Assembly (NCBI GenBank): GCA_963727625.1 | Contig: CAVSHR010000012.1 | Coordinates: forward strand, 320,001 to 384,000 | Length of the DNA stretch: 64,000 nt | Direction: 5' to 3' | Source: an uncultured delta proteobacterium | GTDB lineage: Bacteria > Desulfobacterota > Binatia > UBA9968 | In this document: one piece after another, positions 1 through 64,000 of the stretch | How the letters are laid out: the number at the start of each line of letters is the position of its first letter | Position numbering within the stretch: position 1 is the first letter of the stretch | Program-made: the position numbers and the translations under genes | Notes under the pieces: model-generated | Told to the model about the DNA's origin: nothing | Databases searched by the model: none | Seen by the model: the letters and a program-made list of their open reading frames with translations, nothing else

Positions 1-810
1 GCTGCCGAGCAGCCAGCGGCCGATCCCCGACCGGCCGTGACTGCACATGGCGATCAAATTATGCTCGGTTCTGCGGGCGATATCGACGATCTCGCCGGCG
101 GGGTCGCCCTCCATGGCGGTGGCGACGACATTGTCGAGCCCTTCGGCGCGCAGTTGGTCGACCTTGCCGGCGAGGTAGAGCTCCGCTTCTTTTTGCATTT
201 CCTCGCGGTAAGGCGCCGAGCCCTGCGCGATCACGCCGTCGGCGACGACATAGGCGTTGGGCGGCAGCTCGTAGATCCGAATGAGCTGAACTTCCAATTT
301 CATCGACTTGGCTAAGGTTACGACCTGAGGCAAAACCTTTTCAGCGAGCCCCGAGCCATCCAGGGGCACGATCACCGTCGTGAATTTGACCGGAGTCGCC
401 GGATCGATGCCTTCCACCGGGCGAGCCAGCAACAACGGATTGACCGCTCTTTGAACCACCTTGCTCGTCACGCTGCCGAGCAACCACCGGCGCAAACCCG
501 ACATGCCATGGGTCGCCATCGCGATGAGGCAGCTCGGATCGGTTCGATTGCGCTCGACGATGATTTCCGCCGGTTCGCCGATCTCGACGTTCGATGTGGC
601 GCGAGGGGCGGTCGGAAAATATTTTTCACGAACTTCCTGCAAATACCGTTTGTCCGCCTGAGGCGGCCAGAACGGCGGACGCGCCTCCGGATCGGTCACC
701 GTGAACAGATCGACCGGAATGTTGTGCGCGGCGGCGAAGGCTTGCACCAATGGCAGAATTTGCTCCGCTAACTTGGAACCATCCAGTGGCACCGATATCT
801 TGCTAAACAT
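1..810 (-). CDS. Tandem-domain universal stress protein (3' end outside window; not in ORF track)
   Basis: Manual translation from ATG at 810: MFSKISVPLDGSKLAEQILP...IAMATHGMSGLRRWLLGSV...VIVPLDGSGLAEKVLP...IAMCSHGRSGIGRWLLGS; two USP domains, open to window edge. Confidence 0.92.
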   Translation of the reverse strand, partial: MFSKISVPLDGSKLAEQILPLVQAFAAAHNIPVDLFTVTDPEARPPFWPPQADKRYLQEVREKYFPTAPRATSNVEIGEPAEIIVERNRTDPSCLIAMATHGMSGLRRWLLGSVTSKVVQRAVNPLLLARPVEGIDPATPVKFTTVIVPLDGSGLAEKVLPQVVTLAKSMKLEVQLIRIYELPPNAYVVADGVIAQGSAPYREEMQKEAELYLAGKVDQLRAEGLDNVVATAMEGDPAGEIVDIARRTEHNLIAMCSHGRSGIGRWLLGS

Positions 811-840
811 CTTTCTATGCTCTCCCCCCCAGGCGCCGCC

Positions 841-1746
841 TCAAGCAGTCGCCCGAACTATCAAGACCGGATTGGCCGCGTGGCGCGCAACGGTTTCCGC
901 CACGCTGCCAAGCACCCACCGTTTTAATCCCGAGCGACCGTGCGAACACATCGCAATCAAAATATTCGGGCTCGTCCGGCCGAACTCGATGATCTCGTCC
1001 GCGCTCATTCCTTGCTTCGATGCAATGACAACTCTTTCCAGCCCCGCGGTCTCGAGAGCAGCGCGCTTTTCTTCGAGATATTGCCGCACCGCCGCTTCGA
1101 TCCCGGCGACCACGCGTTCCAGATCGGCACCGTAGGAGCCGCCGCCATCGTAAATGCCGTAGGGAATATGGAAGACCCGAAGCAGAGTAACTTCGAGGTC
1201 GAGCTTTTTGGCGAGATCGACGACGCTGGGCAGCACCGTTTCCGCGAGCGGCGAGCCGTCCAGGGGCACCACGATCGACTTGAGCGGGCCATGCTCCGGG
1301 CCCGGCGCATTTGCCGACGCCCGCACCAGCAGCAACGGATTGCTCGTGCCGCGGAGAATCTTCTCGGCCACGCTGCCGAGCAGCCAGCGGTTCAGTCCGG
1401 AACGGCCGTGCGTGGCCATGGCGATCAAGGTATCCTCCCCGACCGCCGCAGCCTCAATGATGGCGTTTTCCGCTTTACCCTTTTCGACGCGCCGGTGAAC
1501 CGCCGCCCCCGAAAAGCTCTTGGCGACTTCGGCCAAATATTCCCGGCGGCGGCGCGTCTCATCTTCGGCGAGCGTGTCGAGGAAAATATTCTCCGCAGCC
1601 GAGACATTGTGGGCCAACTCGACCAGGTCGATCACGGAGATCAATTCCACCGCCGCGCTCAAGCCCCCGGCAAGGGTGCGGGCGAGCGGCAGAACATGCT
1701 CGGCGGCTGGCGAACCATCGAGCGGAACTAAAATCTTCCGGTACAT
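841..1746 (-). CDS. Tandem-domain universal stress protein
   Basis: Two PLDGS motifs and two HGRSG..RW.LGSV motifs. Confidence 0.95.
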   Translation of the reverse strand: MYRKILVPLDGSPAAEHVLPLARTLAGGLSAAVELISVIDLVELAHNVSAAENIFLDTLAEDETRRRREYLAEVAKSFSGAAVHRRVEKGKAENAIIEAAAVGEDTLIAMATHGRSGLNRWLLGSVAEKILRGTSNPLLLVRASANAPGPEHGPLKSIVVPLDGSPLAETVLPSVVDLAKKLDLEVTLLRVFHIPYGIYDGGGSYGADLERVVAGIEAAVRQYLEEKRAALETAGLERVVIASKQGMSADEIIEFGRTSPNILIAMCSHGRSGLKRWVLGSVAETVARHAANPVLIVRATA

Positions 1747-1774
1747 AACCTCTCGTCCTCCGCATCCGGTGCGC

Positions 1775-2680
1775 TCAGCCGGCGCGCACCACCAGCACCG
1801 GATCGACAGTGTGGCGCACCACGGTTTCCGTCACGCTGCCGAGCACCCAGCGCTTTACGCCGGACCGGCCATGAGAGCACATGGCGATCAAGCCGTCCGG
1901 CGTCTTTCGTCCGAGCGCAATGATCTCGTCGCCGGCGAAACCTTCCGCGCTCACCGAAGTCACTTTTTCGACACCGAGCTTTTTGACCTCGGCCACTTTC
2001 TTCGCGAGGTATTCGTTGGCTTCGTCGCGCACGCTGGTGATCAGTTCGTCATAATTCACCGCGTAGTAACCGTCATCGCCGGCATAGGCGTTATAGGGAA
2101 TATGGTAGGAGCGGAACAGCAAGACTTCGAGGCCGAGCTTCTGCGCCATCGCGGCCACGACCGGCAGCACGCTTTCAGCCAGCTCCGAACCGTCCAGCGG
2201 CACGATCACGGATTTGAACGCCGCCTCTCCTTCCGCTTTGGCTTGCTCGGTGGCCCGGACCAGCAACAAGGGATTGGCCGCGCCACGCAGCACTTTTTCC
2301 GCCACGCTGCCCAACAAGAACCGGTTAAGCCCAGAGCGGCCATGGGTTGCCATGGCAATCAACCTGGACTTGTCCGCTTCACCATTTTCGATGATGGTGT
2401 CTTCGGCCCGCCCCTTTTCGACCGTGCACTCAACCTTGGCGCCACGAAACGTGCCGGCAATGGCGCGCAAATAGGTCTCACTGCTGCGCATGCCGTTTTC
2501 AATCATGGTATCGAGGAAACGCGCGTTTTCGGCGGAAATATGGGTCGCCATCTCGGCGATATCGACAACCGCCACCAACTCCACCGGGAGATTGAATTTG
2601 CCTGCCAGGTGGCGAGCGTAGGGCAGGACTTTTTCGGCCGTCTTGGAGCCGTCGAGCGGAATCAAAATTTTGCTATACAT
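1775..2680 (-). CDS. Tandem-domain universal stress protein
   Basis: Two USP domains; RBS AGGAG upstream. Confidence 0.95.
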   Translation of the reverse strand: MYSKILIPLDGSKTAEKVLPYARHLAGKFNLPVELVAVVDIAEMATHISAENARFLDTMIENGMRSSETYLRAIAGTFRGAKVECTVEKGRAEDTIIENGEADKSRLIAMATHGRSGLNRFLLGSVAEKVLRGAANPLLLVRATEQAKAEGEAAFKSVIVPLDGSELAESVLPVVAAMAQKLGLEVLLFRSYHIPYNAYAGDDGYYAVNYDELITSVRDEANEYLAKKVAEVKKLGVEKVTSVSAEGFAGDEIIALGRKTPDGLIAMCSHGRSGVKRWVLGSVTETVVRHTVDPVLVVRAG

Positions 2681-2743
2681 TGTTTTCTCCTGGTCTCCTG
2701 TGCGACCCCCTTGCTTGCCCTACGTCTTACCCGGTCGCTGTTC

Positions 2744-3241
2744 CTAATCGACCTTTACCTTGATTTCCTTGGCCTTAGCCTCTTCAGTCTTCGGCACCCG
2801 AACTTCCAGCACGCCATTCTTGAACGACGCTTTAACCTTGTCGCCGTGGACGTCTCTCGGCAGTTCGATCGCTCTCATGAACGATCCGTAGGAACGCTCT
2901 GAACGGTAATAATTTTTCTCCTTAACCTCTTCCTCTTTTTTCTTTTCACCTTTGATGGTCAGCGTGTGGTCGGTCAGGTTGACTTCGATATTCTCTTTCT
3001 CCATCCCCGGCAGTTCCGCCTTGACGACGATATCATCTTTCTCTTCGAATAGATCGACCGCCGGTACCCCTGCCTCCGTCTCGTCGGCTCTAAACCACCT
3101 GTCTGGCCACCACGGTCGCATTCTTCGGCCGAAGAAATCTTCCATCATTCGGTCCATGTCCCGTTCCCAGCGGCCGAGATCCATAACGGGCCGTCGCGGC
3201 TCAATCGCCTTTGTTTCCTTTTCTTTAGCTTTGTCTGCCAT
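2744..3241 (-). CDS. Hsp20/alpha-crystallin small heat-shock protein
   Basis: PAVDLFE..AELPG..ERSYGSF.R..LP..A.FKNGVLEV.VPK; RBS AAGGAGG. Confidence 0.96.
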   Translation of the reverse strand: MADKAKEKETKAIEPRRPVMDLGRWERDMDRMMEDFFGRRMRPWWPDRWFRADETEAGVPAVDLFEEKDDIVVKAELPGMEKENIEVNLTDHTLTIKGEKKKEEEVKEKNYYRSERSYGSFMRAIELPRDVHGDKVKASFKNGVLEVRVPKTEEAKAKEIKVKVD

Positions 3242-3294
3242 GGCTAATTCCTCCTTCGTAATGAATAGTTTTCAATCCCCCACCGAATGACTCC

Positions 3295-3309
3295 GCAATC
3301 AGTGTGCCA
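3295..3309 (-). promoter_or_regulatory. sigma54 promoter for hsp20-usp-usp-usp
   Basis: TGGCAC-ACTGA-TTGC, perfect -24/-12 consensus. Confidence 0.85.
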
Positions 3310-3348
3310 ATATTTTGTGTCGTTTTTTCTTTTTTCACACTGATCCGT

Positions 3349-3395
3349 TTCGCATTCTTGAAAAAATTTTCCCTCTGTTCTGTCAAATTTGCGAT
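3349..3395. promoter_or_regulatory. Paired palindromic activator boxes (putative bEBP UAS)
   Basis: TTCGCA-TTCT-TGAAAA (3349) and CTGTCA-AATT-TGCGAT (3380), 31 bp apart. Confidence 0.7.
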
Positions 3396-3465
3396 CTAAG
3401 ATTTTCGAGTTTCAGAACTTCAAACAAAAGCGCTGCTGTCAACGGCGTCGAATGACCGCGTCGGC

Positions 3466-3480
3466 TGGCACCTATCTTGC
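3466..3480 (+). promoter_or_regulatory. sigma54 promoter for the 2-oxoacid oxidoreductase operon
   Basis: TGGCAC-CTATC-TTGC, perfect consensus. Confidence 0.85.
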
Positions 3481-3511
3481 GCTTTCTATTAACCAGAGCA
3501 TGGAGATTGCC

Positions 3512-4408
3512 ATGATTGAAGTTCGCTTTCACGGCCGCGGTGGCCAGGGCGCAAAGCTCGCGAGCCGGATATTCGGGTGCGCCGGGTTTTTGTCCGGACT
3601 TCAAGCTCAAGACTTCGCCTTGTTCGGCGCCGAGCGCAGGGGCGCGCCGGTGGTTTCTTTCACCCGCTTGAGCGACGAAGCGATCGATCAGCGCGGCTAC
3701 GTGGAACATCCGGATCTGGTCGTCGTCATGGACGATTCGCTGCTGAAGGAAGCGCCTGGACAAGTCTTTCATGGCGTTGACGATAAAACACCGCTCTTCG
3801 TGAACGCCGATCCTGATCGCTTCGCAATTGATCTGAAGGATTTGCCTGCGGCAAAGTTCCTGTTCGTCGACCTGTCGGCGATTGCACGGAAACTGATCGG
3901 CGCTCCTGTGGTAAGCGCCGCCGCGGCCGCCATCGCCGCCAAATGCGTTCCGTCCATCAGTCTGTCGGCGCTCGAAAATGCCGTTAAAATCGAACTCGGC
4001 GAATTTAGGCTGGCGCCGAACTTGGTCGAAAGGAACCTGGCCGCGGCCGGGGCAGCGTACCAACGGACGCCGGCCGTCGATCTCGTTCCGGTAGTCAAAG
4101 CCGAGAGAGTTTCCGCGCCGTCATGGCAGGCCGTTCCCTATCTCGGCACTTCTCAGTTTGCCGGTCCGACGATCCGCCACCAGGGCAGCGCGGCCTTGCG
4201 CCAAACCGGCAACTGGCGCATCGAACAGCCGGTCATCGAGCTGGATAAATGCAAGCGCTGCTTTCTTTGCTACCTCTACTGTCCGGAAGCGGCGATGCGC
4301 TTGGACGCGGAGAATTTTCCCCATGTCGACTACGATCACTGCAAGGGCTGCATGATTTGCTACGAAGAGTGCCCGACCGATGCGATCAGCCGGAGGTTGG
4401 AGGTATAA
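3512..4408 (+). CDS. porC: 2-oxoacid:ferredoxin oxidoreductase gamma-delta fusion subunit
   Basis: MIEVRFHGRGGQG..FGAERRGAP (gamma) plus CKRCFLCYLYCP and CKGCMICYEECP 2x[4Fe-4S] (delta); GGAG RBS supports start 3512. Confidence 0.9.
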   Translation: MIEVRFHGRGGQGAKLASRIFGCAGFLSGLQAQDFALFGAERRGAPVVSFTRLSDEAIDQRGYVEHPDLVVVMDDSLLKEAPGQVFHGVDDKTPLFVNADPDRFAIDLKDLPAAKFLFVDLSAIARKLIGAPVVSAAAAAIAAKCVPSISLSALENAVKIELGEFRLAPNLVERNLAAAGAAYQRTPAVDLVPVVKAERVSAPSWQAVPYLGTSQFAGPTIRHQGSAALRQTGNWRIEQPVIELDKCKRCFLCYLYCPEAAMRLDAENFPHVDYDHCKGCMICYEECPTDAISRRLEV

Positions 4409-4450
4409 GGTGTGCCGGGAAAAGTATTGCGACGGTGCCAAAAATCGCGG

Positions 4451-4470
4451 GGGCGCAATTCATTGCGCCC
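4451..4470. repeat. REP-like palindrome
   Basis: GGGCGCAAT-TC-ATTGCGCCC perfect inverted repeat in the intergenic gap. Confidence 0.6.
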
Positions 4471-4480
4471 GAGGTGTGAC

Positions 4481-5725
4481 ATGACCCGCACGATGCTCAC
4501 CGGCAACGTGGCGGCAGCCTGGGGCGCCCGGCTTGCCGAAGTCGATTACATTCCGGCGTTCCCAATCACGCCGCAGACCGAGATCATCGAAATGCTGGCG
4601 CGCTGGTGCCGGAACGGCGAGATGGCGGCAAAATGGGTGATGATGGATTCGGAACACTCCATGCTTGCGGCGGCGGCCGGCGCAGCCGCCGCCGGCGTTC
4701 GGGTCTTCACCGCCACTTCGAGCCAGGGTTTCCTCTACGGTTTCGAAATGCTCTACGCGATCGCCGGGCTGCGACTGCCGCTGGTTTTGGTCAACGTATC
4801 GCGCGCGCTCGCCCATCCAATCACTCTCGAACCCGATCACAATGACGTGCTTTCAGGGCGCGATACCGGATTCCTCCAGTTTCACTGCGAGACCAGCCAG
4901 GAAGTGCTTGATTCTATCTTGATGGCCTACCGTTTGGCCGAACATCAAAAGGTTCTTCTACCGGTGATCGTCAACCTCGACGGTTTTTACTTGTCCTTTA
5001 CACGCGAGCCGGTCGAAATTCCGGAATTGGAAAAAGTGAAAGACTTTCTGCCCGTTTTTACTCCTGCGTCTCCGGTCCTTTCCGATAAAGAACCGGTCGC
5101 CCTGGGGGCTGCGGTGCTAGACTCGAGTTTGTACAGCTACTTCAAACATCAGATGCACCACGCCGCTGAAGCCGCCTTGGAAATCTATCCGCGGATCGCC
5201 GCCGACTTCGCCGAAAGATTTGGCCGGCGCTACAGCGCCATCGAAGAGTTCATGCTCGACGATGCCGAGTACGTCATCGTCATGACCAACTCGTTCGCCT
5301 CCATGGGCAAAGCAGAAGTCAAGCGACTGCGCCAACAGGGAAAGAAAATCGGCCTGGCGCGCTTGCGCATGATTCGGCCGTTCCCGCACGCGGCGCTGCA
5401 GCGCGTGCTCCATGGCCGCAGAGGCGTCGCGGTCATCGATCAGAATATTTCCGTCGGCAAAGGCGGTATTTTATTCAGCGAGATCGCCAGCGCGCTCTAT
5501 GCGCTCGCCGACCGGCCGCCCATCTTGCTTTCGTTTATCGGCGGGCTCGGCGGACGACGGTTTCGCGCCGGCGAATTCGATACCATGCTTCGGAAATTGG
5601 AAAATCCGACGGAAACCGCCGCCCAGATGGCGCGGCCACACCTGCTTTTCACCGGTGAAGAATGCCGCGAGGTCGGCCGGTTCTTCTCGATCGCCGGGAA
5701 AGGAGAAGCCAGCCATGAAACGTGA
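4481..5725 (+). CDS. porA: 2-oxoacid:ferredoxin oxidoreductase alpha subunit
   Basis: GNVAAA..FPITPQTEI..SEHS..TATSSQG..VNVSR; RBS GAGGTG. Confidence 0.93.
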   Translation: MTRTMLTGNVAAAWGARLAEVDYIPAFPITPQTEIIEMLARWCRNGEMAAKWVMMDSEHSMLAAAAGAAAAGVRVFTATSSQGFLYGFEMLYAIAGLRLPLVLVNVSRALAHPITLEPDHNDVLSGRDTGFLQFHCETSQEVLDSILMAYRLAEHQKVLLPVIVNLDGFYLSFTREPVEIPELEKVKDFLPVFTPASPVLSDKEPVALGAAVLDSSLYSYFKHQMHHAAEAALEIYPRIAADFAERFGRRYSAIEEFMLDDAEYVIVMTNSFASMGKAEVKRLRQQGKKIGLARLRMIRPFPHAALQRVLHGRRGVAVIDQNISVGKGGILFSEIASALYALADRPPILLSFIGGLGGRRFRAGEFDTMLRKLENPTETAAQMARPHLLFTGEECREVGRFFSIAGKGEASHET

Positions 5726-6731: not shown

Positions 6732-6793
6732 AAGTTTATTCTTTGTTGAGGTTCATGGGCGACAATGTTCGGTTGAATGCAAACGACTAGGAG

Positions 6794-7900: not shown

Positions 7901-8057
7901 TCGTACCTATGCATTGCTGTTCAATGGATTGGCTCCGACACCCCACGCTAACCATTCGATGGCGGACATCCCTCGCTGATTCCGGGCCTGCAACCTGAAA
8001 AGCACGTGCCGCGCGCGCCAACTCAAACAATCCTTCCGGCACGATTTCATGGCTTCC

Positions 8058-9008: not shown

Positions 9009-9232
9009 GATGACCGCCTCTAATTTGACTCTTTTGCTAGCGTGCCAAAGCTTGGGCCGATATTTCTCTAAATTCGCCGTGCTTCTTCCCCAGCCTCGGC
9101 ATAACTTCATTAATCCAATTCGGATGCGCCTATCCGTTACCTGGGTTACGGACGCGTTCTTTTTTATTGACTATGAAAGTTATTTTAAAGGCGGCGAAAT
9201 TCTGCATCGTGCGTTTCACAAGGGGGGGAACA

Positions 9233-9943: not shown

Positions 9944-10038
9944 GCAAAGTTAGGAATTTCGCGCGTGCGCGGAAATCCGAGATTGGGTTTCGCGCCGCTC
10001 GTCCCAAGAGGATAGGCTCGGAGAAAGTACCTCGTTCA

Positions 10039-53278: not shown

Positions 53279-53310
53279 GCGAAGAAAGTCCTTATCGATA
53301 GGCTTTAACC

Positions 53311-53733
53311 ATGGAGGAGGCGCGCTGGGAACATCGACCCCATGGCGCCGATGTCGGCGTCTGCGGCATCGGCCGCTCCAAGGCCGAAGCGTTCGAACAG
53401 GCGGCTGTGGCATTGACAGCCATCGTTGCCGATCCCGAGTCGGTTGCCGCTAAAGATGCCGTCGAGGTAAGCTGTGACGCACCCGATGATGAGCTGCTGC
53501 TGGTCGAGTGGCTCAATGTTTTGATCTACGAGATGGCCACGCGAAAGATGCTCTTCGCGCGCTTTGCGGTTCATATCGATGATCATCAATTGGCGGGCAA
53601 AGCCTGGGGCGAAGCGATCGACGTCGACCGCCATGATCTAGGGGTCGAGGTCAAGGGCGCGACTTGCACCGACTTAAAGGTGACTCGAGAAGAGTCCGGG
53701 CTATGGCGCGCCCAATGCGTGGTCGATGTCTGA
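53311..53733 (+). CDS. Archease
   Basis: H.ADVG..LLVEWLN..EVKGAT..VVDV; adjacent to rtcB. Confidence 0.92.
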   Translation: MEEARWEHRPHGADVGVCGIGRSKAEAFEQAAVALTAIVADPESVAAKDAVEVSCDAPDDELLLVEWLNVLIYEMATRKMLFARFAVHIDDHQLAGKAWGEAIDVDRHDLGVEVKGATCTDLKVTREESGLWRAQCVVDV

Positions 53734-56529: not shown

Positions 56530-56544
56530 TGGCGCACCGATTGC
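56530..56544 (+). promoter_or_regulatory. sigma54 promoter for the CoA-activase gene
   Basis: TGGCGC-ACCGA-TTGC. Confidence 0.82.
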
Positions 56545-56591
56545 GTCACTGGTAACTGGCGTATCTGTCAGAAGGGCTCCTTGGTGCAGCG

Positions 56592-59500
56592 GTGAAATAT
56601 ATCGGCATAAATATCGGTGCCCTGACGGTCAAGCTCGCGGTCTTGGATGGGGCTCAAACCTTTGCGGCGGTGGTACCCCATCTGGGCCGCCCGCTCGCGG
56701 TTCTCGAAAAGCTCCTCGCTGAGAAAGATTTCGCCGGTGCCGATTATTACGGCGTGTCGGGCCATCTTGGCCACCTCTCGGAGGCCGCGGCCATTCAACG
56801 CGCTCTGGGCGAGGTAAAAAGCGATTTTGATGCGGTGGTATCGCTGGGCGGCGAGTCGTTCCTGGTTTACATCGTTGCGAAAGGCCGGATCAGCAACGTC
56901 CTGTCCCATAACAAGTGCGCCGCCGGCAGCGGCGAGTTCTTCGTGCAGCAGATCGGCCGCATGGGGCTCGGCATGGAAGAGGCCATCCGCAATTCGTTCG
57001 AGGGCAAGGTCGTGCCGTTGGCGGCGCGCTGCTCGGTGCACTGTAAATCCGACATCACCCACAAGCTCAACCGCAACGAGGCGACCGCCAAAGACATTCT
57101 CCATACGCTCCATGACAGCATGGCGAGCAAAGTCGTTGCCCTGCTCGAAAAAGGTCAGAGCGATCTCCGGCGCGTGCTTTTGATCGGCGGGGTTACCCGA
57201 AACGCGGCGATGCTGGCGGCGCTGCGCGAGAAGCTTCTATCTACTGAGTTCGTCGTGTTACCCGAGAGTCCCTGGTTCGAAGCCTGGGGCAGCGCATTGC
57301 TCACGCGCGACCTGCCGCTGTATCCTGCACCAAAAACATCGACCCAGGCGACTCTCGGCCACCTGCCGGCGCTCAAGCTCTATAGCGATCGGGTCGAAGT
57401 CATTCCCGTGCCGCCGCAGCAACCGGCGCCTGACGGCCCGATGGTGCTTGGTGTGGACGCGGGATCGACAACCACTAAAGCCGTGCTTGTCGACGCCGCG
57501 ACCAAGGCGGTGGTGGCGACGAATTACACGCGAACCCGGGGCGATCCGGTCGCCGCGACGCGCGAATGTTTGAGAGCACTGGTCGAACAGATCGGCAACC
57601 GGTGCATCGGCTTGGTGGGCTCCACGGGTTCAGCGCGCGAGCTCGCCGGCGCCTACCTCGGCACCGAGCATGTCTACAATGAAATCTCAGCCCATGCCGC
57701 CGGCGCCGCGCATTTTGACGCGGACGTCGATACGATCTTTGAGATCGGCGGCCAGGATTCCAAATATATCTATCTTCGCAACGGCGTGCCCATCGACTAC
57801 GCGATGAATAACGCCTGCTCGGCGGGCACCGGTTCTTTTCTCGAGGAAAGCGCCCACGGCGATCTCGGCATGGACGTCTCGGAGATCGCCGAGCTCGCGT
57901 TGGCCGCTCCCGCGCCGGTGCAATTCAAGGCGACCTGCGCGGCGTTTATCAACTCCGATATCCGCATCGCCCTGCAAGAAGATCACTCACGCGAGAACAT
58001 CGTCGCCGGTTTGGTTTATGCCATCGCCGGCAACTACCTGAACCGCGTCAAGGGATCGCGCTACGTCGGCAAGAAAGTCTTCTTGCAAGGCGGCGTCGCG
58101 CTGAATCAAGCGGTCGGTCACGCATTTGCGCACAGTGTCGGGCGCCAGGTCGTCATTCCGCCCAGCCCGGAATTGCTCGGAGCGTTGGGGGTGGCGTTGC
58201 TGGCCCTGCAACGGGCGGACGGCTCGTTAGGAACCGCGACGGAGCTCTTGACTCTGGCCGCGCCGGAGATGAAGCGCACCGGTGGATTTACCTGCGGCGC
58301 CTGTGGCCTGTATTGCAGCATCGATCATTTCGAAGTCGCCGGACGGCGCTTTCCCTTTGGCGGCCGCTGCAGCCTCTATGAAAACGTCTGGAAACGAAAA
58401 AACCGCAGCGCAGCGGCGCCAGATCTAGTCGAGCAAAGGAGCAAGCTGCTATTTGACCGTCCCAAGGGCGAGAGCTCGGGCAACGGAAAACGAATCGGAA
58501 TTCCCAAGGCGTTGACGACGCACTCGCTCTACCCGCTCTATTCGACCTTTTTCGCCGGCATGAGCATGGAGGTCGTTTTATCGGCAGTCGACCCGCGCGG
58601 CGAACTCAAATCGAATGCGGGATTTTGCTTTCCCGCGCAGATCGCCCACGGCGCGGTACTGGACCTGGTTCAGCGCGGCGTGGAGCTGATCTTTTTGCCT
58701 CATGTGATGCGCATGCCGCGGCAGGAGGCGTGGAAGGAATCCTATTTATGTCCGATCACGCAGGCCAGCCCTTATTTCCTGGCCAAGGCTTATCCGCAAA
58801 TTCATCTGCTCTCGCCATTGCTCGATTTTAGCGACGGTTATGCCGCGAGCTCCACGCTGGTCGACATGGCGATCAACGAGCTTGGTCAGCCGCGCGATCT
58901 CGCCGAGCGGCAGTGGGCGGCGGCAGTAACGGCCCAAATTGAAGCGGAGCGCGATCTTTTGCAGTTGGGTCGCAGGGCGCTGGCGCAAGCGATCGCCGAC
59001 GGCAAACCTGCGGTCATTCTTGCGGGCCACAGCTACAACGCTTTCACACCGGAAGGGTCACAGTCGGTCGGCAAGAAATTATCGAGTATGGGAGTGGCGG
59101 CAATTCCCGCCGACTGCCTTTCACCAGCGGGCACCGGTCCCACCTCGTGGCATTTCGCCAACCAGGTGATGAATGCGGTGAAGGCGGTCAAACAGCAGGC
59201 CAATCTGTTTCTCCTTTGCGTGAGCAATTTCAGTTGCACCATCGACGCTTTCACCCAATCGATGCTCGCCGCAGAGATGGGTTCGAAGCCCTATCTCATC
59301 CTGGAGATCGATGCCCATACCGCCGACGCAGGCGTGCAAACCCGCTTGGAAGCGTTTCTCGATATCGTCAAGAATTATCATGAAGGCGAGATCAGCCGCC
59401 GCAGCGAATTCAACCCGGCTAAACTGATCGGCGGCGGTCAAGTGCTTCGCGGCAATGGCGAGCGAGTAGCGCTCACGGACCCGCGGGTCAAGCTCTATTT

Positions 59501-60734
59501 TCCCAACTTCTCGCAATATCACGCGGAATCACTGGCGATGTCGGTTGGCTGGCTAGGACTGCACGCCGGCACAGTGACTGCGCTCGACCGCAACCATCTT
59601 GGCAGAGGCCTGCAACACACGTCGGGACGAGAATGCCTGCCGTTGCCGATTTGCATCGGCCAGCTGCTCGAGATTCACGAACGGCGCGTGCCCGGTGAAA
59701 TCGCCGGCTACTATATGCTGGAGGGCGGAGCGCCCTGCGTCATCGACGCCTACATGGGCTATCTGGAACGGTTCATCGGCGAACAGAGCTTGGAGGATCT
59801 TTTCTTGCTCGTCCCCGGCGCTGACAACGATCACTGCGGTTATGACCCAGTGATCTTGGCAAAGTATACCCTGCCGGCACTTCTGGTAGCGGACATCATG
59901 GTCGAGATCGAACAAGTCCTTCACGTCGTCGGCGATGCCCACGCCAACGCACAGCTGAAACAGGAATGGCAGCGCTTCATTGCAAGCGCAAACTCATTGG
60001 AGCAGTTCCATGCGCAACTTCCTGGGTTCGTCGACCGCTTGGCGTCCATCCCGTGTAAACGAAACCCGCTCGATTCCCCGCGGGTACTGGTTACCGGCGA
60101 TTTTTTCACGCGCTTCAGTCCATTTTTCATGGAAGGCGTGAGCGAAATCTATAATGATCGCGGCATCATTCTCAAACCGGTCGATCTGAACGGCCTGTTG
60201 CTCTACGGGGCTTACAACATGGTCGCTGAAGCGGCCGGCGGTTGGGGACTCAAACCGGGCGGCGTAGCGCTAGCGAAAGCTTGCACAAGAATTTTCCAGC
60301 CCGACGGGCGAGAGTACTTGCGCCGTTGGCTCGCCTATCAGACTGAGAAGCGATCCGAAGCATACTACCGCAGGATCTTTCACAAGAGCGGCTATCTGCT
60401 AACACCGCAAGGAGACGCCTCGGCTACCTTTTTAGACGCCTCGGAACATATCTCGCCGAAGATTTACGGCGAGGTCATTCCGACCGTCGGCGACAGCGTA
60501 CGGGCGGATGTCGAAGGCTACGACGGCATCATCATTATCGGCCCGTTTAACTGCTTGCCGTTCCGCATCGCCGAAGCGATTCTCAAGCCGCTCAGCATTC
60601 GACGCGGCATGCCGATCCTCTCCTATGAGAGCGATGGATACGCCGTCTCGCCGTCATTTATCAGACAGGTTGAGGTCCACACGCAGCAGGTTCTTGAGCA
60701 CAGGGCGCGAAATTCGATTCGCGGCGCGGCATGA
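56592..60734 (+). CDS. Multidomain acyl-CoA dehydratase activase (2x BcrAD/BadFG ASKHA domains plus DUF2229/dehydratase-like domains)
   Basis: KCAAGSG, GVDAGSTTTK, EIGGQDSK, ACSAGTGSFLEE, C.FP, NFSC..D, LEIDAH.ADAG..TRLEAF, PFNCLP. Confidence 0.88.
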   Translation: MKYIGINIGALTVKLAVLDGAQTFAAVVPHLGRPLAVLEKLLAEKDFAGADYYGVSGHLGHLSEAAAIQRALGEVKSDFDAVVSLGGESFLVYIVAKGRISNVLSHNKCAAGSGEFFVQQIGRMGLGMEEAIRNSFEGKVVPLAARCSVHCKSDITHKLNRNEATAKDILHTLHDSMASKVVALLEKGQSDLRRVLLIGGVTRNAAMLAALREKLLSTEFVVLPESPWFEAWGSALLTRDLPLYPAPKTSTQATLGHLPALKLYSDRVEVIPVPPQQPAPDGPMVLGVDAGSTTTKAVLVDAATKAVVATNYTRTRGDPVAATRECLRALVEQIGNRCIGLVGSTGSARELAGAYLGTEHVYNEISAHAAGAAHFDADVDTIFEIGGQDSKYIYLRNGVPIDYAMNNACSAGTGSFLEESAHGDLGMDVSEIAELALAAPAPVQFKATCAAFINSDIRIALQEDHSRENIVAGLVYAIAGNYLNRVKGSRYVGKKVFLQGGVALNQAVGHAFAHSVGRQVVIPPSPELLGALGVALLALQRADGSLGTATELLTLAAPEMKRTGGFTCGACGLYCSIDHFEVAGRRFPFGGRCSLYENVWKRKNRSAAAPDLVEQRSKLLFDRPKGESSGNGKRIGIPKALTTHSLYPLYSTFFAGMSMEVVLSAVDPRGELKSNAGFCFPAQIAHGAVLDLVQRGVELIFLPHVMRMPRQEAWKESYLCPITQASPYFLAKAYPQIHLLSPLLDFSDGYAASSTLVDMAINELGQPRDLAERQWAAAVTAQIEAERDLLQLGRRALAQAIADGKPAVILAGHSYNAFTPEGSQSVGKKLSSMGVAAIPADCLSPAGTGPTSWHFANQVMNAVKAVKQQANLFLLCVSNFSCTIDAFTQSMLAAEMGSKPYLILEIDAHTADAGVQTRLEAFLDIVKNYHEGEISRRSEFNPAKLIGGGQVLRGNGERVALTDPRVKLYFPNFSQYHAESLAMSVGWLGLHAGTVTALDRNHLGRGLQHTSGRECLPLPICIGQLLEIHERRVPGEIAGYYMLEGGAPCVIDAYMGYLERFIGEQSLEDLFLLVPGADNDHCGYDPVILAKYTLPALLVADIMVEIEQVLHVVGDAHANAQLKQEWQRFIASANSLEQFHAQLPGFVDRLASIPCKRNPLDSPRVLVTGDFFTRFSPFFMEGVSEIYNDRGIILKPVDLNGLLLYGAYNMVAEAAGGWGLKPGGVALAKACTRIFQPDGREYLRRWLAYQTEKRSEAYYRRIFHKSGYLLTPQGDASATFLDASEHISPKIYGEVIPTVGDSVRADVEGYDGIIIIGPFNCLPFRIAEAILKPLSIRRGMPILSYESDGYAVSPSFIRQVEVHTQQVLEHRARNSIRGAA

Positions 60735-60993: not shown

Positions 60994-61641
60994 TTATCCC
61001 ACCGCCGAGACTTTCGACTTATCCCGTTTAAGGATTTCGACCACGTCTTCATCGGCAACCTGGCCGAACTCGTCAAAAAATTGGCCCACGGCGTAGAATT
61101 CACCCGGGACATCCAAACAGACCACCTCATCGCACTCGCGCGACATCGCTTGAGCCGCTTCCGGGGAAGCCACGGCGACGGCGGCAATCAGCTTTTTGGG
61201 CCCCTGGGCGCGCACCGCGCGCAACGCCGCCCTCATCGTTGATCCGGTGGCGATGCCGTCGTCAACCACGATGACCATGCGGTCTCGCGGATCGATCGGC
61301 GCCTGATGCGGCGTGTATACGGCTCGGCGGCGGCGCAGGACCTGCAGTTGGCGTTTTTTTTCCGCTTGCACATACTCGAAGTCGAGATCCAAAGCCCACT
61401 CGGAAACAAACGCTTTGCCGGTTTCATCGATGGCGCCGATGGCGAGCTCAGGCGACTCGGGATGGCTGAGCTTGTGCACGAGCACGACATCCAGCTCGCC
61501 GCCGAGGGCACCGGCGATGATCTTGGCCATCGGCACTGCGCCGCGCGGTATGCCGAGCACTAAAGGATTCTTGTTTTTGTACTGAGGACTCAAGCGCTCG
61601 ACCAAAAGCGCCGCGGCATGTTCTCGATTTCTAAATCGCAT
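60994..61641 (-). CDS. Phosphoribosyltransferase family protein (Rv0571c-like)
   Basis: F.NR..A..L, GIPRGAVP, VIVVDDGIATGSTM, FYAVGQFF..F.QV.D. Confidence 0.9.
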   Translation of the reverse strand: MRFRNREHAAALLVERLSPQYKNKNPLVLGIPRGAVPMAKIIAGALGGELDVVLVHKLSHPESPELAIGAIDETGKAFVSEWALDLDFEYVQAEKKRQLQVLRRRRAVYTPHQAPIDPRDRMVIVVDDGIATGSTMRAALRAVRAQGPKKLIAAVAVASPEAAQAMSRECDEVVCLDVPGEFYAVGQFFDEFGQVADEDVVEILKRDKSKVSAVG

Positions 61642-61677: not shown

Positions 61678-63063
61678 TCAAACCCTCGTCTCCGGTGATT
61701 TTCGATTGCCCGGTTGTCTTTGCCGCGCGTCGACTTCTTTGGCCAGAAGTTGAATCGCTTCGGCAACGCGCACGGGATAATCCGGCGCAGGCTCGAGCTT
61801 TTTCAACCCATCGGGCAGTTTCTTGAATTGCTCCAGTGCCCACGCCCGCGATTGCTTCAGGGACACGGGCGCTGTAAGCCGCCGTCCCTGCTGCATGACC
61901 GGCGCGATGAGCGCGGCCCCGCTGTTTTCGTCGCCTTCCAAGGTCAAGAGATCTCCAGCCATCAGTCCTGCGGAATCGTAGGTCCGAAACACCTGCTTTC
62001 TGCCCGGCCACAGCACCTTGCCTTCCGAGCGCTTGCGGCGGGCACGGCCGGCATACTCGACGAGCTTGTAGGCGCAGTCCAAGTAGGGCGCATCGGCGGA
62101 AGTATCCATATGCGTGCCGATGCCGAAGCCGTCGATGGGGGCGCCTTTCTCGCGTAGCTGTTGGAGCAGATATTCATCGACGCTGCCGCTGGCAAAGATG
62201 GTGACCTCATTGAGGCCGCCGGCGTCAAGAATGCGCCGCACTTTGAATGCATGATCGGCCAGATCGCCGCTGTCCAGCCGCACGCCTTTGATTTTAATCC
62301 CGTCGTGGCCAAGCTTGGGCGCCAGCTCGACGACCTTTTGGGCCGCCGCTTCAGTGTCATAGGTATCGATCAGGAGAATCACATTATTTGGCAGCGCCCG
62401 GGCAAAGTGCTCAAACGCCGCGCTTTCGTCATCGTGTGCCTGCACGAATGAGTGGGCCATCGTGCCAAATACCGGGATGTCGTAGAGCGGCGCCGCCAGC
62501 ACCGTGGCGCTGCCGGCGAAACCGGCCAAATAACTCGCTCGCGCCGCCAGCAGTCCGGCTTCGGCCCCATGGGCGCGGCGCAAGCCAAAATCCACCAGCA
62601 GTTTGCCTGGTGCCATCAGCACCGAACGCGCCGCCTTTGAAGCGATCAAGGTTTCAAAATGAAACAAGTTAATCAGCCGGCTTTCCACCAGCTGCGCCTG
62701 GTCGATCGGCGCCGTGACGCGCAGGATCGGTTCGTTGGGGAAAAAAATCGTTCCTTCAGCCATGGCGTGGACATCGCCGGTAAAGCGGAGATTTTTCAGA
62801 TAGCGCACGAACTTTGGATGAAACTCGCCATGCTTGCCGATCCATTCGAGCTCCGCTGCGGTAAAGCGCAGGTTTGCCAAAAACCCGAGCCCCTGTTCAA
62901 GGCCGGCGGCGACGAGAAAATTGCGCGAGCGCGGCAGCTTGCGAACGAAAAATTCAAAAACCGCGGTTTCTTCCATGTGCTGATCGAAGTAGCCCTGGAG
63001 CATCGTGAGCTGGTATAGATCGGTCAGCAGCGCGCTCGATAGAACGTTTCGCTCGATATTCAT
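61678..63063 (-). CDS. pncB: Nicotinate phosphoribosyltransferase
   Basis: LLTDLYQLTM, DFGLRRAHG, GTMAHS, LIDTYDT, VRLDSGD, YKLVEY. Confidence 0.95.
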   Translation of the reverse strand: MNIERNVLSSALLTDLYQLTMLQGYFDQHMEETAVFEFFVRKLPRSRNFLVAAGLEQGLGFLANLRFTAAELEWIGKHGEFHPKFVRYLKNLRFTGDVHAMAEGTIFFPNEPILRVTAPIDQAQLVESRLINLFHFETLIASKAARSVLMAPGKLLVDFGLRRAHGAEAGLLAARASYLAGFAGSATVLAAPLYDIPVFGTMAHSFVQAHDDESAAFEHFARALPNNVILLIDTYDTEAAAQKVVELAPKLGHDGIKIKGVRLDSGDLADHAFKVRRILDAGGLNEVTIFASGSVDEYLLQQLREKGAPIDGFGIGTHMDTSADAPYLDCAYKLVEYAGRARRKRSEGKVLWPGRKQVFRTYDSAGLMAGDLLTLEGDENSGAALIAPVMQQGRRLTAPVSLKQSRAWALEQFKKLPDGLKKLEPAPDYPVRVAEAIQLLAKEVDARQRQPGNRKSPETRV

Positions 63064-63254
63064 TGCGCTTTCCTATGCCTTGAACCGCCTCAGCCCATCC
63101 GGGTCCACCTGCGTCCAAGAGGTCGTCGCGCGCCTCGCTTTCGGCCCGCCGCAGCGCCGAGAATGCAAGCTGGTCATGCCAGCGCACCCAACACCTGCCA
63201 TCGTTGAGGACCAACAGCGAAAAATCGACACTCGGCGATTACGCTCTTGGAGTG

Positions 63255-63269
63255 GCAAACGGCATGCCA
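63255..63269 (-). promoter_or_regulatory. sigma54 promoter for pncB-PRT
   Basis: TGGCAT-GCCGT-TTGC. Confidence 0.78.
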
Positions 63270-63328
63270 TGAAACGGCTTAAGTTCAACCTGAAACTTGG
63301 CGCTAAATTCGCTTCTCGGCGGCGCAGA

Positions 63329-63375
63329 TTCCCGCGCGCGCAAAATTCGCTCCAATAAATTTTCATCGTTGCAAG
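63329..63375. promoter_or_regulatory. Paired palindromic activator boxes (weaker)
   Basis: TTCCCG-CGCG-CGCAAA (63329) and TTTTCA-TCGT-TGCAAG (63360), 31 bp apart. Confidence 0.5.
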
Positions 63376-63546
63376 AAGCGATCGCAGGACAGGTGTCGCT
63401 GGGGCGGAGCGGGCCATGGAATGGGTCCGCGGCGATTCAGGAGGCCGTGCTATGCGCCCATAAAGCGAGCACGCTGGATCCGGCGAGAGTACCCGGGCAA
63501 GATCACTTTTCGATGGTTCAGGAGCGCGAGTAGAGACAAACTTGTT

Positions 63547-64000
63547 TTAAACATCGATACTGAGCTTTTCGAGTTTACGGTAAAGCGTCGACAGGCTGAG
63601 GCCCAATAATTCCGCGGCGCGCACTTTGTCGCCCGCCGTTTTTCCTAAAGTACGCTCGATATGGCTCTTCTCATAGAGCTCGATGGCTTTGCTCAGATTA
63701 TCGTCGCTGTTGATTTCGCTGTCCGCCGCCGACTGATGTCCCGGCAAGTCGCCGGGAGATATCCATTCGCCGTTGCCGAGAATCATTGCCCGTTCCAAGA
63801 CGTTGTCCAGTTCGCGGATGTTGCCCTTCCAGGGCAGCGACATGAGGATTCTCATGGTTGCGCTGTCAACCCCTTTGTAGCTGGTCTTCATTTCCAGGTT
63901 GTGCCGGTGAATTAGATACTCGACCAGGCCGGGCAAATCCTCGAGCCGTTTGCGCAGCGGCGGTATGTCAATCTCAAAGACGTTCAATCGGTAGTAGAGA
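63547..64000 (-). CDS. sigma54-dependent enhancer-binding protein (NtrC/AtoC family), C-terminal part
   Basis: LYYRLNVFEIDIPPLRKR, WKGNIREL.N..ERA, Fis-type HTH RAAELLGLSLSTLYRKL. Confidence 0.95.
   Translation of the reverse strand, partial: LYYRLNVFEIDIPPLRKRLEDLPGLVEYLIHRHNLEMKTSYKGVDSATMRILMSLPWKGNIRELDNVLERAMILGNGEWISPGDLPGHQSAADSEINSDDNLSKAIELYEKSHIERTLGKTAGDKVRAAELLGLSLSTLYRKLEKLSIDV

Follow-up and report, generated by a model that had tools for sequence, protein, structure and literature searches.

The stretch of DNA analyzed here, referred to throughout as the window, comprises 64,000 nucleotides of an uncultured member of the Binatia (G000:C12:320001-384000), from an assembly of 6.62 Mb in 15 contigs with a G+C content of ~56.5%. 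The gene content of the window continues on both flanks, so the unit concerned is an island of ~100 kb, roughly C12:313,000-406,000, of which the window is the core. We consider it fairly probable that the operons of this island are for the most part transcribed from sigma-54 promoters, and that a FixL-like histidine kinase and an NtrC-type activator, both encoded within the island, switch them on upon the loss of oxygen. The sigma-54 wiring, with its bacterial enhancer-binding protein (bEBP), is supported by sequence evidence; it is probably one two-component system encoded inside the island that switches the operons on together, and oxygen as the signal with dormancy as the outcome is plausible by analogy.

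Gene content was assigned by Pfam hmmscan of ~70 reading frames in the window, with gene starts and operons taken from open reading frame (ORF) logic only. To locate sigma-54 promoters the pattern TGGCAC-N5-TTGCW was used, with GG at -24, GC at -12 and a fixed spacing. At up to two mismatches the window contains 48 matches to this pattern, while 100 shuffles average 29.6 +/- 5.2 (maximum 43). With GG and GC fixed and at most one mismatch there are 171 matches in the genome, about 1 per 40 kb; of 172 bins, the one at C12:320-360 kb has the highest count, 6, and the next two bins hold 3 and 4. Intergenic sites aimed at the adjacent gene total 24, of which the window holds 17 and the following 19 kb the other 7, the latter preceding the bEBP gene, a string of CBS and ribonucleotide reductase (RNR) genes, two USP (universal stress protein) units, a gene fusing a ribosome hibernation factor (HPF) to a cold-shock domain (CSD), and, as a divergent pair, reading toward a Lon-like protease. 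Judging by strand and spacing, ~44 of roughly 65 window genes would lie downstream of such a site. The genome encodes rpoN once (Sigma54_DBD, E 3.7e-62, in a 522-aa frame at C6:181555-182031). The sites of the window are as follows, relatives being named by their genome numbers:

3294-3309, minus strand: -24/-12 site TGGCACACTGATTGCG, 52 nt before the Hsp20 start; kept in both G014 and G017
3466-3481, plus strand: -24/-12 site TGGCACCTATCTTGCG before the POR genes; conserved in G014 and G017
15902-15917, minus strand: -24/-12 site TGGCGCATTTCTTGCG, 204 nt upstream of the AMP-binding gene; the same pattern finds no counterpart in G014
16074-16089, plus strand: -24/-12 site CGGCATTGAAATTGCT, 58 nt upstream of the DUF2267 gene; same distance in G014 and G017
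22981-22996, minus strand: -24/-12 site AGGCACGCCGATTGCT of the receiver-only gene
23825-23840, minus strand: -24/-12 site of the 73-aa protein
24178-24193, plus strand: -24/-12 site TGGCACAACAATTGCC before the 151-aa ORF and BrkB
28810-28825, minus strand: weak -24/-12 site of tandem USP 4, with 3 departures from consensus
34402-34417, minus strand: ambiguous -24/-12 site of the PaaA-like gene, overlapping a dyad-like palindrome
35598-35613, minus strand: -24/-12 site TGGTATTTTTTTTGCT of tandem USP 5
36035-36050, plus strand: -24/-12 site of the 189-aa protein
38433-38448, minus strand: -24/-12 site of the Host_attach gene, ~500 nt upstream of it with a doubtful 104-aa ORF in between
51032-51047, minus strand: -24/-12 site of the glycine-zipper-DnaK-MacAB-TolC string
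51241-51256, plus strand: -24/-12 site TGGTACGCCAATTGCT of the c-type cytochrome; conserved in G014 and G008
53264-53279, plus strand: -24/-12 site TGGCACAGCCATTGCG of archease-RtcB-Band 7-DUF1488; conserved in G006 and G014
56530-56545, plus strand: -24/-12 site TGGCGCACCGATTGCG of the BcrAD protein; conserved in G014
63254-63269, minus strand: -24/-12 site TGGCATGCCGTTTGCC of PncB-PRTase (PRTase, phosphoribosyltransferase)

The site at 24178-24193 ends 10 nt short of the first ATG (24204) of the 151-aa ORF, which would have either a leaderless mRNA or a true start farther downstream.

Upstream of these promoters a dyad was found by Gibbs sampling of 16 upstream stretches of this genome, in the form TCGCA-N4-TGAAAA/TGCGAA. 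As a matrix trained on the island is partly circular, leave-one-out scoring was applied and the discovery was repeated on relatives only, using 64 upstream stretches of non-coding -24/-12 sites from G014, G017, G003, G008, and G013. This yielded the same motif, with the consensus T[TC][TG]CA-N4-TGCGAAA. With the relatives-only matrix, a dyad of at least 12 bits lies upstream of 18 of 38 sites in the island versus 33 of 1208 elsewhere (Fisher 8e-17), and one of at least 14 bits upstream of 11 of 38 versus 14 of 1208 (Fisher 1.5e-11), while downstream control windows of the same size gave 4 of 38 in the island and 29 of 1208 elsewhere at 12 bits. The leave-one-out matrix of the genome itself gave 13 of 38 versus 14 of 1208 at 14 bits. 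Taking at least 10.5 bits within 170 bp, the dyad accompanies 19 of the 24 promoters overall, including 13 of the 17 in the window. The gaps between dyad and -24 element cluster at 38-42 bp and 80-81 bp, divergent promoter pairs share one dyad set, and at six places paired dyads are found 31-34 bp apart. Those located in the window are the following, without strand:

3348-3363 and 3381-3396: two dyads common to the divergent Hsp20 and POR promoters, 33 bp apart (17.3 and 11.7 bits)
15958-15973: dyad common to the divergent promoters at 15902 and 16074 (18.5 bits, relatives-only matrix)
23913-23928: dyad of the 73-aa protein unit
24042-24057: dyad of the 151-aa ORF/BrkB unit
28875-28890: weak dyad of tandem USP 4 (10.9 bits)
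35903-35918: dyad of the 189-aa protein unit
38488-38503 and 38522-38537: two dyads of the Host_attach unit
51177-51192 and 51210-51225: two dyads of the c-type cytochrome unit
53157-53172 and 53188-53203: two dyads of the archease-RtcB unit
63359-63374: dyad of the PncB-PRTase unit

The candidate activator and its kinase lie at the end of the window and just beyond it:

C12:383547-384896 (3' part at 63547-64000 of the window), minus strand: NtrC-type enhancer-binding protein, 449 aa
C12:385087-387702, same strand, upstream of the activator: histidine kinase, 871 aa, with GAF, three PAS, HisKA, and HATPase domains

Within the window only the C-terminus of the enhancer-binding protein (AAA lid and HTH_8) is encoded, by the final 453 bases. 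Across the whole protein Pfam finds Response_reg (5-114), Sigma54_activat (145-309, E 1.5e-69), AAA_lid_14, and HTH_8 (405-445), and its translation shows GESGVGKE and IFLDEIGE, which we take to be the Walker A and B motifs, as well as GSFTGA, presumably the sigma-54 contact loop with one conservative departure from GAFTGA. The genome has 35 Sigma54_activat matches, 27 of them strong, and this activator is the only one on the 661-kb contig. The dyad is assigned to it mainly because dyads precede the activator's own gene in all six genomes examined, an arrangement which also suggests that the activator autoregulates.

Residues 519-645 of the kinase, the PAS domain next to HisKA, match FixL haem domains in the PDB, with the haem-PAS of Escherichia coli DosP a weaker match. 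Searched alone, this segment aligns with Bradyrhizobium FixL (1dp6, E 8.4e-28, 1-127 against 3-129, 127/131 residues). In the HMMER alignment the kinase has E-H-D, an Arg six residues on, and G-R-I-R against R-H-D, R, and G-I-G-R in FixL, where the aligned segment holds the proximal His and the Arg residues contacting the propionate and the bound O2 (presumably His200, Arg206, and Arg220 in FixL numbering). Orthologous kinases of G014, G003, and G017 have this domain at 70-73% identity and retain the proximal His and the Arg residues. Induction by hypoxia is predicted from this homology between a single PAS domain and the haem domain of FixL. The GAF domain occupies residues 76-218, and neither DosS nor DosT is among the 60 PDB matches listed for the kinase, in which Pfam found no globin or receiver domain. 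An earlier note on this DNA had proposed that its genes were wired to sigma-54 and a bEBP, and this is borne out at the level of the DNA and protein sequences by the promoter sites, the shared dyad, their conservation, the single rpoN, and the adjacent bEBP with its PAS/GAF kinase; a PAS/GAF/haem kinase, sought past position 64000, is indeed present there in the form of the GAF-PAS3 kinase with its FixL-type haem domain.

Related sensors and activators occur in other places. The kinase ortholog of G017 has two tandem FixL-type haem-PAS copies (G017:C43, about 116650-117400). In the genome studied here a second FixL-type haem-PAS domain, 68% identical to that of the island kinase, is encoded at C9:316629-316994. 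A -24/-12 site accompanied by a strong dyad (C9:325159, 17.6 bits) lies ~8 kb away, and the domain may belong to a paralogous sensor that feeds into this regulon or into a sister one. A second, smaller cluster is found at C5:205000-245000 with a receiver-less bEBP paralog (C5:224734-225669, 56% identical over AAA+ and HTH), two USPs (one tandem, one single), CBS pairs, c-type and multihaem cytochromes, a VIT1-rubrerythrin, PFK, a PaaA-like protein, and a small GerE protein; three -24/-12 sites there (C5:209008, 227018, and 236084) come with a dyad of the type seen in the island. In another phylum, L023 (a record of 8973 bp titled Candidatus Eisenbacteria) encodes, near a PaaA-like gene and an RtcB gene, a bEBP that lacks a receiver and shares 56% identity with the activator over residues 137-447 of the latter, an arrangement which hints that the receiver-less paralog family travels with PaaA-like and RtcB genes.

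Orthologs of the activator (77-93% identity) were identified in 10 of 18 same-genus genomes, a count that includes the unpublished genome G005, on which no claim rests. The best matches in 12 genomes of two neighboring families are 39-45% identical, and in a species-representative collection there are two 'Candidatus Binatia' metagenome-assembled genomes (MAGs), L003 at 86% and L004 at 60%, all others being at or below 47%. Within these 12 genomes and this collection the activator is thus not traceable beyond the genus. In the loci read, its ortholog stands beside USP, Hsp20, CBS, PRTase or PncB genes. The island of G014 is syntenic over ~85 kb, in the order adenosine-specific kinase-USPx4-Hsp20, POR-LeuDH, branched-chain 2-oxoacid dehydrogenase-synthetase, DUF2267-DnaJ-PEMT-Mla, DnaK, cytochrome c, followed by archease-RtcB-Band7-DUF1488-BcrAD, PRT-CBS-bEBP-kinase, PriCT, and CBSx2, and parts of it are carried by G017, G003, G013, G006, and G008. 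The G014 locus yielded no counterpart of the 24-48 kb segment of the window or of PncB, Host_attach, and ferritin, and the island is thus modular in content.

The regulatory elements are conserved along with the genes. The -24/-12 sites are kept before the orthologous Hsp20, POR, DUF2267, cytochrome c, archease, BcrAD, 73-aa, and bEBP genes, for all of these but POR at distances that match, and G014 has two copies of the 73-aa gene, each with such a site. Each of the three genomes compared has a dyad upstream of the Hsp20 promoter at a start-to-start distance of 56 bp. When the Hsp20-POR spacer of three genomes is aligned (67% mean identity), the invariant columns fall on both -24/-12 elements and both dyads, the dyad footprint TTTCGCA..TTGAAAA being invariant, whereas the sequence between the elements diverges. 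RtcB was found in four of five genomes of one neighboring family.

The clustering of the genes themselves is not due to chance, given that 16 of the 39 Usp-domain matches of the genome are located in C12:319,950-401,712 (~1.2% of the genome) and that several families are single-copy here. By tblastn the single-copy families, all in the island, are RtcB, archease, Host_attach, PRTase, ferritin, and DUF2267. Second copies in the window are DnaK and DnaJ (55% and 46% identical, respectively, to copies at C3) and PncB (NAPRTase; 47% identical to the copy at C2). The estimated contamination of this MAG is 6.3%, a concern offset by the position of the island on a 661-kb contig and its synteny in relatives. 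The earlier note had placed the genes in a diderm, and the TolC-type outer-membrane efflux protein (OEP), MacAB, and MlaEFD of the window do point to a diderm envelope.

FixL is switched off by O2 and, by analogy, the 871-aa kinase would sense through the FixL-type haem-PAS next to its kinase core, with O2 on the haem holding the kinase off and the loss of O2 leading to autophosphorylation. The kinase would then phosphorylate the receiver domain of the adjacent NtrC-type activator, which would assemble on the dyads, often paired and ending ~40 or 80 bp upstream of -24, and open sigma-54 holoenzyme complexes by means of its ATPase. The binding of the activator to the dyad, the role of oxygen as the signal, the operon boundaries, and the physiology are what we infer; the gene families, the promoter and dyad sites with their enrichment and conservation, and the domains and key residues of kinase and activator are what the sequences show. 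A state of low energy without growth is suggested by the genes that would thus be induced. Nucleotide-binding USPs would be made, as would CBS proteins and the chaperones Hsp20 and second-copy DnaK and DnaJ; ribosomes and RNA would be cared for by HPF-CSD, a baeRF12 protein, archease-RtcB, and a tRNA-editing domain protein; NAD salvage (PncB and PRTase), RNR, and oxygen-independent catabolism of 2-oxoacids and amino acids would be provided, and the induced set would also include iron storage, hemerythrin, the Lon-like protease, and a DksA-like protein.

A number of observations speak against an oxygen-controlled sigma-54 regulon of this extent. About one third of the window genes have no candidate sigma-54 promoter, including two NTP-transferases, the CRP-family regulator, the ZIP transporter, an archaeal-type S-adenosylmethionine synthetase, and DUF2934. 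Several sites are weak, that at 28810 departing from consensus at 3 positions and that at 34402 overlapping a palindrome, and four of the 17 window promoters (receiver-only gene, PaaA-like, USP 5, and BcrAD) have no dyad of at least 10.5 bits, a USP 5 dyad appearing with the own-genome matrix only and not with that of the relatives. The dyad matrix is A/T-rich and of modest information (~11.5 bits), with some matches outside the island. The same or similar sites could be bound by the proteins behind the 26 other strong bEBP matches of the genome, among them the receiver-less paralog that is 56% identical to the activator. Modules come and go, RtcB being present in only 4 of 18 same-genus genomes, and the archease promoter was found in three of five genus loci and in none of four of a neighboring family, the archease-RtcB sigma-54 site not being found in G013 and G011. 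In the kinase, the His214 equivalent is not kept in G017, FixL-type haem domains also bind NO and CO, and since a GAF and two PAS domains lack an assigned ligand, oxygen need not be the only or the main signal.

That the same sigma-54/bEBP island answers another cue (NO, CO, redox, energy charge or nutrient exhaustion), integrated by the kinase through the GAF, the other PAS domains or the haem, as a general growth-arrest or stress regulon is an explanation we regard as unlikely, though deserving of attention. It would accommodate the GAF and the two further PAS domains, the CRP-family regulator and receiver-only protein also encoded in the island, and the fact that chaperones, HPF, DksA-like and Lon-like proteins, and USPs serve starvation and stationary-phase responses too. 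Set against this are the PAS domain next to the kinase core, which is a full-length FixL-type haem domain with its ligand-contact residues kept and is conserved in orthologs, and the presence of hemerythrin, RNR, and 2-oxoacid:ferredoxin oxidoreductase, which are typical of low-oxygen responses elsewhere; the lxa and NmpR regulons, similar in content as far as the available parts of their descriptions go, are induced at low oxygen. We think it improbable that the island is a mosaic of unrelated operons under several regulators, in which the likeness to DosR would reflect general stress-gene clustering and the bEBP would control a few adjacent genes. Its composition does vary in the way such a mosaic would (the pieces not found in the G014 locus, the restricted distribution of RtcB, G+C dips to 0.51-0.55 in parts of the window, and rearrangement remnants at 26.2-27.6 kb), and the four promoters without dyad and the 27 strong bEBP matches could be read likewise. 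However, the recurrence of one dyad along ~80 kb, where it accompanies 19 of the 24 promoters at favored spacings and is enriched even with the relatives-only matrix, argues for common control, as do the lack of any other bEBP on the contig, the FNR-type box, which is not enriched (21 versus 21.9 expected), and the variable modules of relatives, which still bear the promoters. It is very improbable that the -24/-12 and dyad matches are a coincidence in A/T-rich spacers with the genes on sigma-70 promoters. The consensus is permissive enough (1246 genome matches at up to two mismatches) for this to be considered, but the -24/-12 pattern exceeds its frequency in shuffles, both elements are enriched relative to the remaining genome, few dyads turn up in the control windows downstream, identity in orthologous spacers falls on exactly these elements while the rest diverges, and the motif was rediscovered independently in relatives.

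The DosR system allows cells to survive without growing: its haem-based kinase acts with a response regulator to induce several dozen genes, and a scheme of this kind is predicted for the island. USPs, Hsp20, the CBS pair, ferritin, HPF-type, and other shared families are members of the DosR regulon, and we take Rv2630 to be an archease and Rv2629 a release-factor-fold protein. The DosR families also present in the island are tandem USPs, Hsp20, RtcB with archease, PRTase, PncB, RNR, the CBS pair, ferritin, and an HPF-type protein. The island RNR was identified by Pfam barrel domains only and is classed no finer than RNR, the CBS-pair protein has a PDB match to Rv2626c (E 5e-9), tandem USP 2 has a weak PDB match to Rv2623 (3cis/2jax, E about 8e-7), and nothing supports a place in the overlap for a dienelactone hydrolase encoded in the flank. 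The available part of a review table gives Rv2631 (RtcB), Rv0570 (B12-dependent RNR), Rv0571c (PRTase), and Rv0573c (nicotinamide recycling) as members and also lists Rv2630 and Rv2629. The island differs in that its regulator is NtrC-type (REC-AAA+-HTH_8) at sigma-54 promoters whereas DosR is GerE/LuxR-type, in that its likely haem site is a FixL-type PAS whereas that of DosS is a GAF, and in the addition of Mla, MacAB-TolC, DnaK/DnaJ, and 2-oxoacid catabolism. GerE, the DosR-type HTH, has eight matches in the genome and none on contig C12, the DosR box itself not having been searched for. The island likewise has no nitroreductase of the Acg type (Rv2032, Rv3127, and Rv3131 in the DosR regulon), the eight Nitroreductase matches of the genome all lying on other contigs.

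The gene classes listed in the earlier note (five tandem USPs, Hsp20, archease-RtcB, PRTase-PncB, Host_attach, and ferritin-like proteins) were all recovered by Pfam. The overlap with the DosR regulon that it described is real at the family level, and larger once the flanks are added (three CBS-pair genes, RNR, HPF-type, and more USPs). Its statement that the island mirrors that regulon holds for the shared families and fails for nitroreductase and GerE, for which contig C12 has no match. As the matches to DosR proteins are distant and at family level only, and these two families are lacking on the contig, the island is to be seen as an analogue and not as a homologous regulon; the likeness, as far as such matches tell, is one of analogy or convergent assembly, not of an orthologous regulon.

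A close regulatory parallel is NmpRSTU of Myxococcus xanthus. In the part of its description available (PMC11841059), hypoxia induces the sigma-54 regulon of the NtrC-like NmpR; among the members are a CBS protein, a USP, hemerythrin, cbb3 oxidase, and HemN, seven promoters are bound, and there is self-regulation. Common to both are an NtrC-like regulator, sigma-54 promoters, multiple dyads with a GCA...TGC core, and a haem kinase on top, which in the island is a predicted one (PMC11841059). The differences from the portion seen are that in Nmp a protoglobin kinase, NmpU, acts through the hybrid kinase NmpS on NmpR, whereas the island has a single GAF-PAS3 kinase, with a FixL-type haem-PAS, adjoining the regulator, and that the Nmp site is GCGCA-N5-TGCGC and the island site YKCA-N4-TGCGA, with a 4-nt spacer and T/A-rich flanks. 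The best Myxococcota bEBP matches are 42-43% identical to the island activator, which is the general level of the NtrC family. NmpR, as partially described, centers on oxygen use, while the island with ~24 promoters has a larger, DosR-like hibernation set and adds RtcB-archease, PncB-PRT, HPF, baeRF, and chaperones.

In gene content the lxa locus of Burkholderia cenocepacia is comparable. The available part of its description (PMC3721108) reports 50 genes, including six USPs, an alpha-crystallin, and a class II RNR. Low oxygen induces the locus, survival under anoxia requires it, and the overlap with DosR is pointed out by its authors. Like the island, for which co-regulation is predicted, it is one contiguous co-regulated cluster in a diderm with USPs, alpha-crystallin, and RNR (PMC3721108, in part). 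Its promoters have an Anr/FNR-like TGA-N6-TCA motif where those of the island are of the -24/-12 type, and no RtcB/archease, PncB/PRTase or baeRF is among the genes described in that part (PMC3721108). FNR/Anr was tried as the main control of the window and rejected: 55 of 100 shuffles reach the 21 matches to TTGAT-N4-ATCAA found at up to two mismatches. A CRP-family regulator (9167-9943) is encoded in the window despite the FNR box being at chance level.

Two further systems share single components with the island. The PAS3-HisKA-HATPase part of the kinase matches FixL, but its partner is NtrC-type and not the GerE-type FixJ, the kinase has an extra GAF and two PAS domains, and the targets are unrelated to nitrogen fixation or cbb3 oxidase. 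As the adjacent regulator is NtrC-type, the kinase is FixL-like without the pair being a FixLJ system. In the RtcR-rtcBA system of E. coli and Salmonella, RtcB is transcribed from a sigma-54 promoter under a dedicated bEBP, a control predicted for the island as well. RtcR has a CARF sensor domain and answers RNA damage, and RtcB is paired with RtcA, whereas island RtcB is paired with archease and shares its predicted activator site with ~20 other stress operons. Gene neighborhood is described, again in a source available in part, as tying baeRF-1 families to the hibernation factor HPF, and the HPF-CSD gene of the island fits this link.

In the literature, subscription-only journals not being covered, nothing was found on this system in Binatia/Binatota, no union of DosR, sigma-54, USP, and RtcB outside tuberculosis work, no pairing of baeRF, Host_attach, Rv2629, and archease, and no combination of FixL-type sensing with an NtrC-type activator, for which only the Nmp paper surfaces. 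The author of the earlier note had known of no description of such a system; this agrees with the search as regards Binatia, and has to be qualified by the analogues in print. With lxa (PMC3721108) and NmpR (PMC11841059), as far as the available parts describe them, the system is less unprecedented than that note held. A DosR-like kit in a diderm (lxa) and a sigma-54 hypoxia regulon (NmpR) are already known, and the island is a different arrangement.

We put forward tentatively, as a possibility open to considerable doubt, the wider proposition that one FixL-like kinase and an NtrC-type activator command about two dozen promoters, that oxygen loss leads by this route to hibernation, and that the kit was assembled independently of actinobacterial DosR. 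Low-oxygen persistence programs are known from few cultured bacteria, each with its own regulator (mycobacteria with DosR, Pseudomonas and Burkholderia with Anr/FNR, Myxococcus with NmpR). In an uncultured phylum, the island would add a fourth scheme for these effector families, in which an NtrC-type sigma-54 activator is paired with a FixL-type haem-PAS kinase. If true, it would be one of the largest contiguous single-bEBP regulons proposed (~100 kb), in an uncultured soil and sediment lineage (Binatia); it would point to a recurrent, phylum-crossing dormancy cassette that is plugged into whichever oxygen sensor and sigma factor are at hand, and would tie RNA repair and release-factor-like proteins to hypoxic ribosome preservation. 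The in silico regulon assigns a putative condition (oxygen or energy limitation) to several poorly understood families, baeRF12/Host_attach, DUF2267, DUF1488, BcrAD-DUF2229, and the 73-aa protein, and links RtcB-archease and HPF to the same predicted switch. The predicted enhancer motif is clean enough to test, and the compact set of parts (kinase, activator, dyad, and promoter) could be rebuilt in a laboratory host. Nothing is overturned by these findings, the value of which is comparative and lies in testable predictions.

The genes of the window are listed below, those identified by a Pfam match being so marked:

1-810, minus strand, continuing past the window start (full gene about C12:319929-320810): tandem USP 1, Usp x2, E 1.2e-36 (Pfam); last USP of the Hsp20-USP operon
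841-1746, minus strand: tandem USP 2, two stretches of Usp, E 4.3e-47 (Pfam)
1775-2680, minus strand: tandem USP 3, two stretches of Usp, E 6.4e-43 (Pfam)
2744-3241, minus strand: Hsp20/alpha-crystallin small heat-shock protein, first gene of the operon, HSP20, E 2.4e-26 (Pfam)
3500-7900, plus strand: POR/OFOR gamma-delta, alpha, and beta subunits, then a Leu/Val-type amino-acid dehydrogenase (Pfam: POR+Fer4, POR_N+PFOR_II, TPP_enzyme_C, ELFV_dehydrog); likely start of the first gene ATG 3500 or 3512
9167-9943: CRP-family regulator
10642-15697, minus strand: AMP-binding acyl-CoA synthetase, then branched-chain 2-oxoacid dehydrogenase E1alpha, E1beta, and E2 (Pfam)
16148-22108, plus strand: DUF2267, DnaJ (second copy), PEMT-type methyltransferase, MlaE(STAS)-MlaF-MlaD, and auxiliary lipoprotein (Pfam)
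22423-22996, minus strand: receiver-only response regulator with its promoter site
23524-23745, minus strand: conserved 73-aa protein, no known family
within 24042-26126, plus strand: 151-aa unknown protein and BrkB-family membrane protein
27856-28785, minus strand: tandem USP 4, two stretches of Usp (Pfam)
32684-33178, minus strand: ferritin (Pfam)
33196-34341, minus strand: PaaA/PaaC-type ferritin-like protein (Pfam)
34635-35666, minus strand: tandem USP 5, two stretches of Usp (Pfam); the Usp domain begins at residue 41, so the start is probably near 35546
within 35903-36664, plus strand: 189-aa Cys-rich membrane-anchored protein, no known family
37395-37919, minus strand: Host_attach/baeRF family 12 protein (Pfam), with no PDB sequence match at E up to 1
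43460-51047, minus strand: glycine-zipper protein, 162-aa unknown, DnaK, MacA, MacB (ATPase and permease), and TolC-type OEP, which from strand and spacing would form one operon
within 51177-51755, plus strand: c-type cytochrome (Pfam)
53311-53733, plus strand: archease (Pfam)
53743-55173, plus strand: RtcB, adjoining archease (Pfam)
unit ending at 56335, plus strand: SPFH/Band 7 and DUF1488, after archease-RtcB (Pfam)
within 56530-60734, plus strand: 1380-aa BcrAD/BadFG ATPase-DUF2229 'CoA enzyme activase' protein
60994-61641, minus strand: PRTase (Pfam)
61678-63063, minus strand: NAPRTase/PncB, adjoining PRTase (Pfam)

Further Pfam families found in the window are thioredoxin, a metallo-beta-lactamase-fold protein, TrmO, a ZIP transporter, two NTP-transferases, and DUF2934, while no Pfam family was found for the ORFs at 23228, 23524, 24204, 26279, 27027, 36095, 38681, 40996, 42396, 42659, 50167, and 50732. 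The archaeal-type S-adenosylmethionine synthetase (PF01941, E 1.8e-145) is encoded at 51825-53162 on the minus strand, divergent from archease, and no sigma-54 site was found for it.

On the flank past the kinase, the next 20 kb contain a PriCT-domain gene, three CBS-pair genes, hemerythrin, the dienelactone hydrolase, and RNR, and farther on two more tandem USPs, one single USP, a tRNA-editing-domain protein, and the HPF-cold-shock fusion; a LonC-like protease and a DksA-like protein are also encoded there. The fusion, in which S30AE (ribosome hibernation factor) is joined to a cold-shock domain, is located at C12:400273-400896, precedes a tandem USP, and has its own -24/-12 site and two dyads. 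The PriCT_1 (primase C-terminal) protein of 371 aa (C12:388158-389273) lies between the kinase and the CBS operon and is kept in the same place at 61-70% identity in G014, G017, G013, and L003. On the other flank (C12:313003-319762) an adenosine-specific kinase (PF04008) is followed by an F-type ATPase operon in the order beta, epsilon, a, b, alpha, gamma, which we take to be the order of 'N-ATPases'. These genes are on the same strand as the Hsp20-USP string and directly after it with a 73-bp gap, and the kinase and the ATPase operon may be co-transcribed from the Hsp20 sigma-54 promoter.

An apparent rearrangement scar is present at 26200-27600, where 26662-26928 duplicates the final 84 residues of tandem USP 4 at 97.6% identity and short fragments resembling the metallo-beta-lactamase gene are also found. 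A TrmO-like frame (30% identity) occurs on the plus strand at about 26215-26550. The region 8001-10000 is of low G+C content (0.51) and contains an NTP-transferase and the divergent CRP-family regulator, a comparable set being found at C7:136000-142000 with an NTP-transferase 61% identical, two CRP-like genes, and a GerE regulator.

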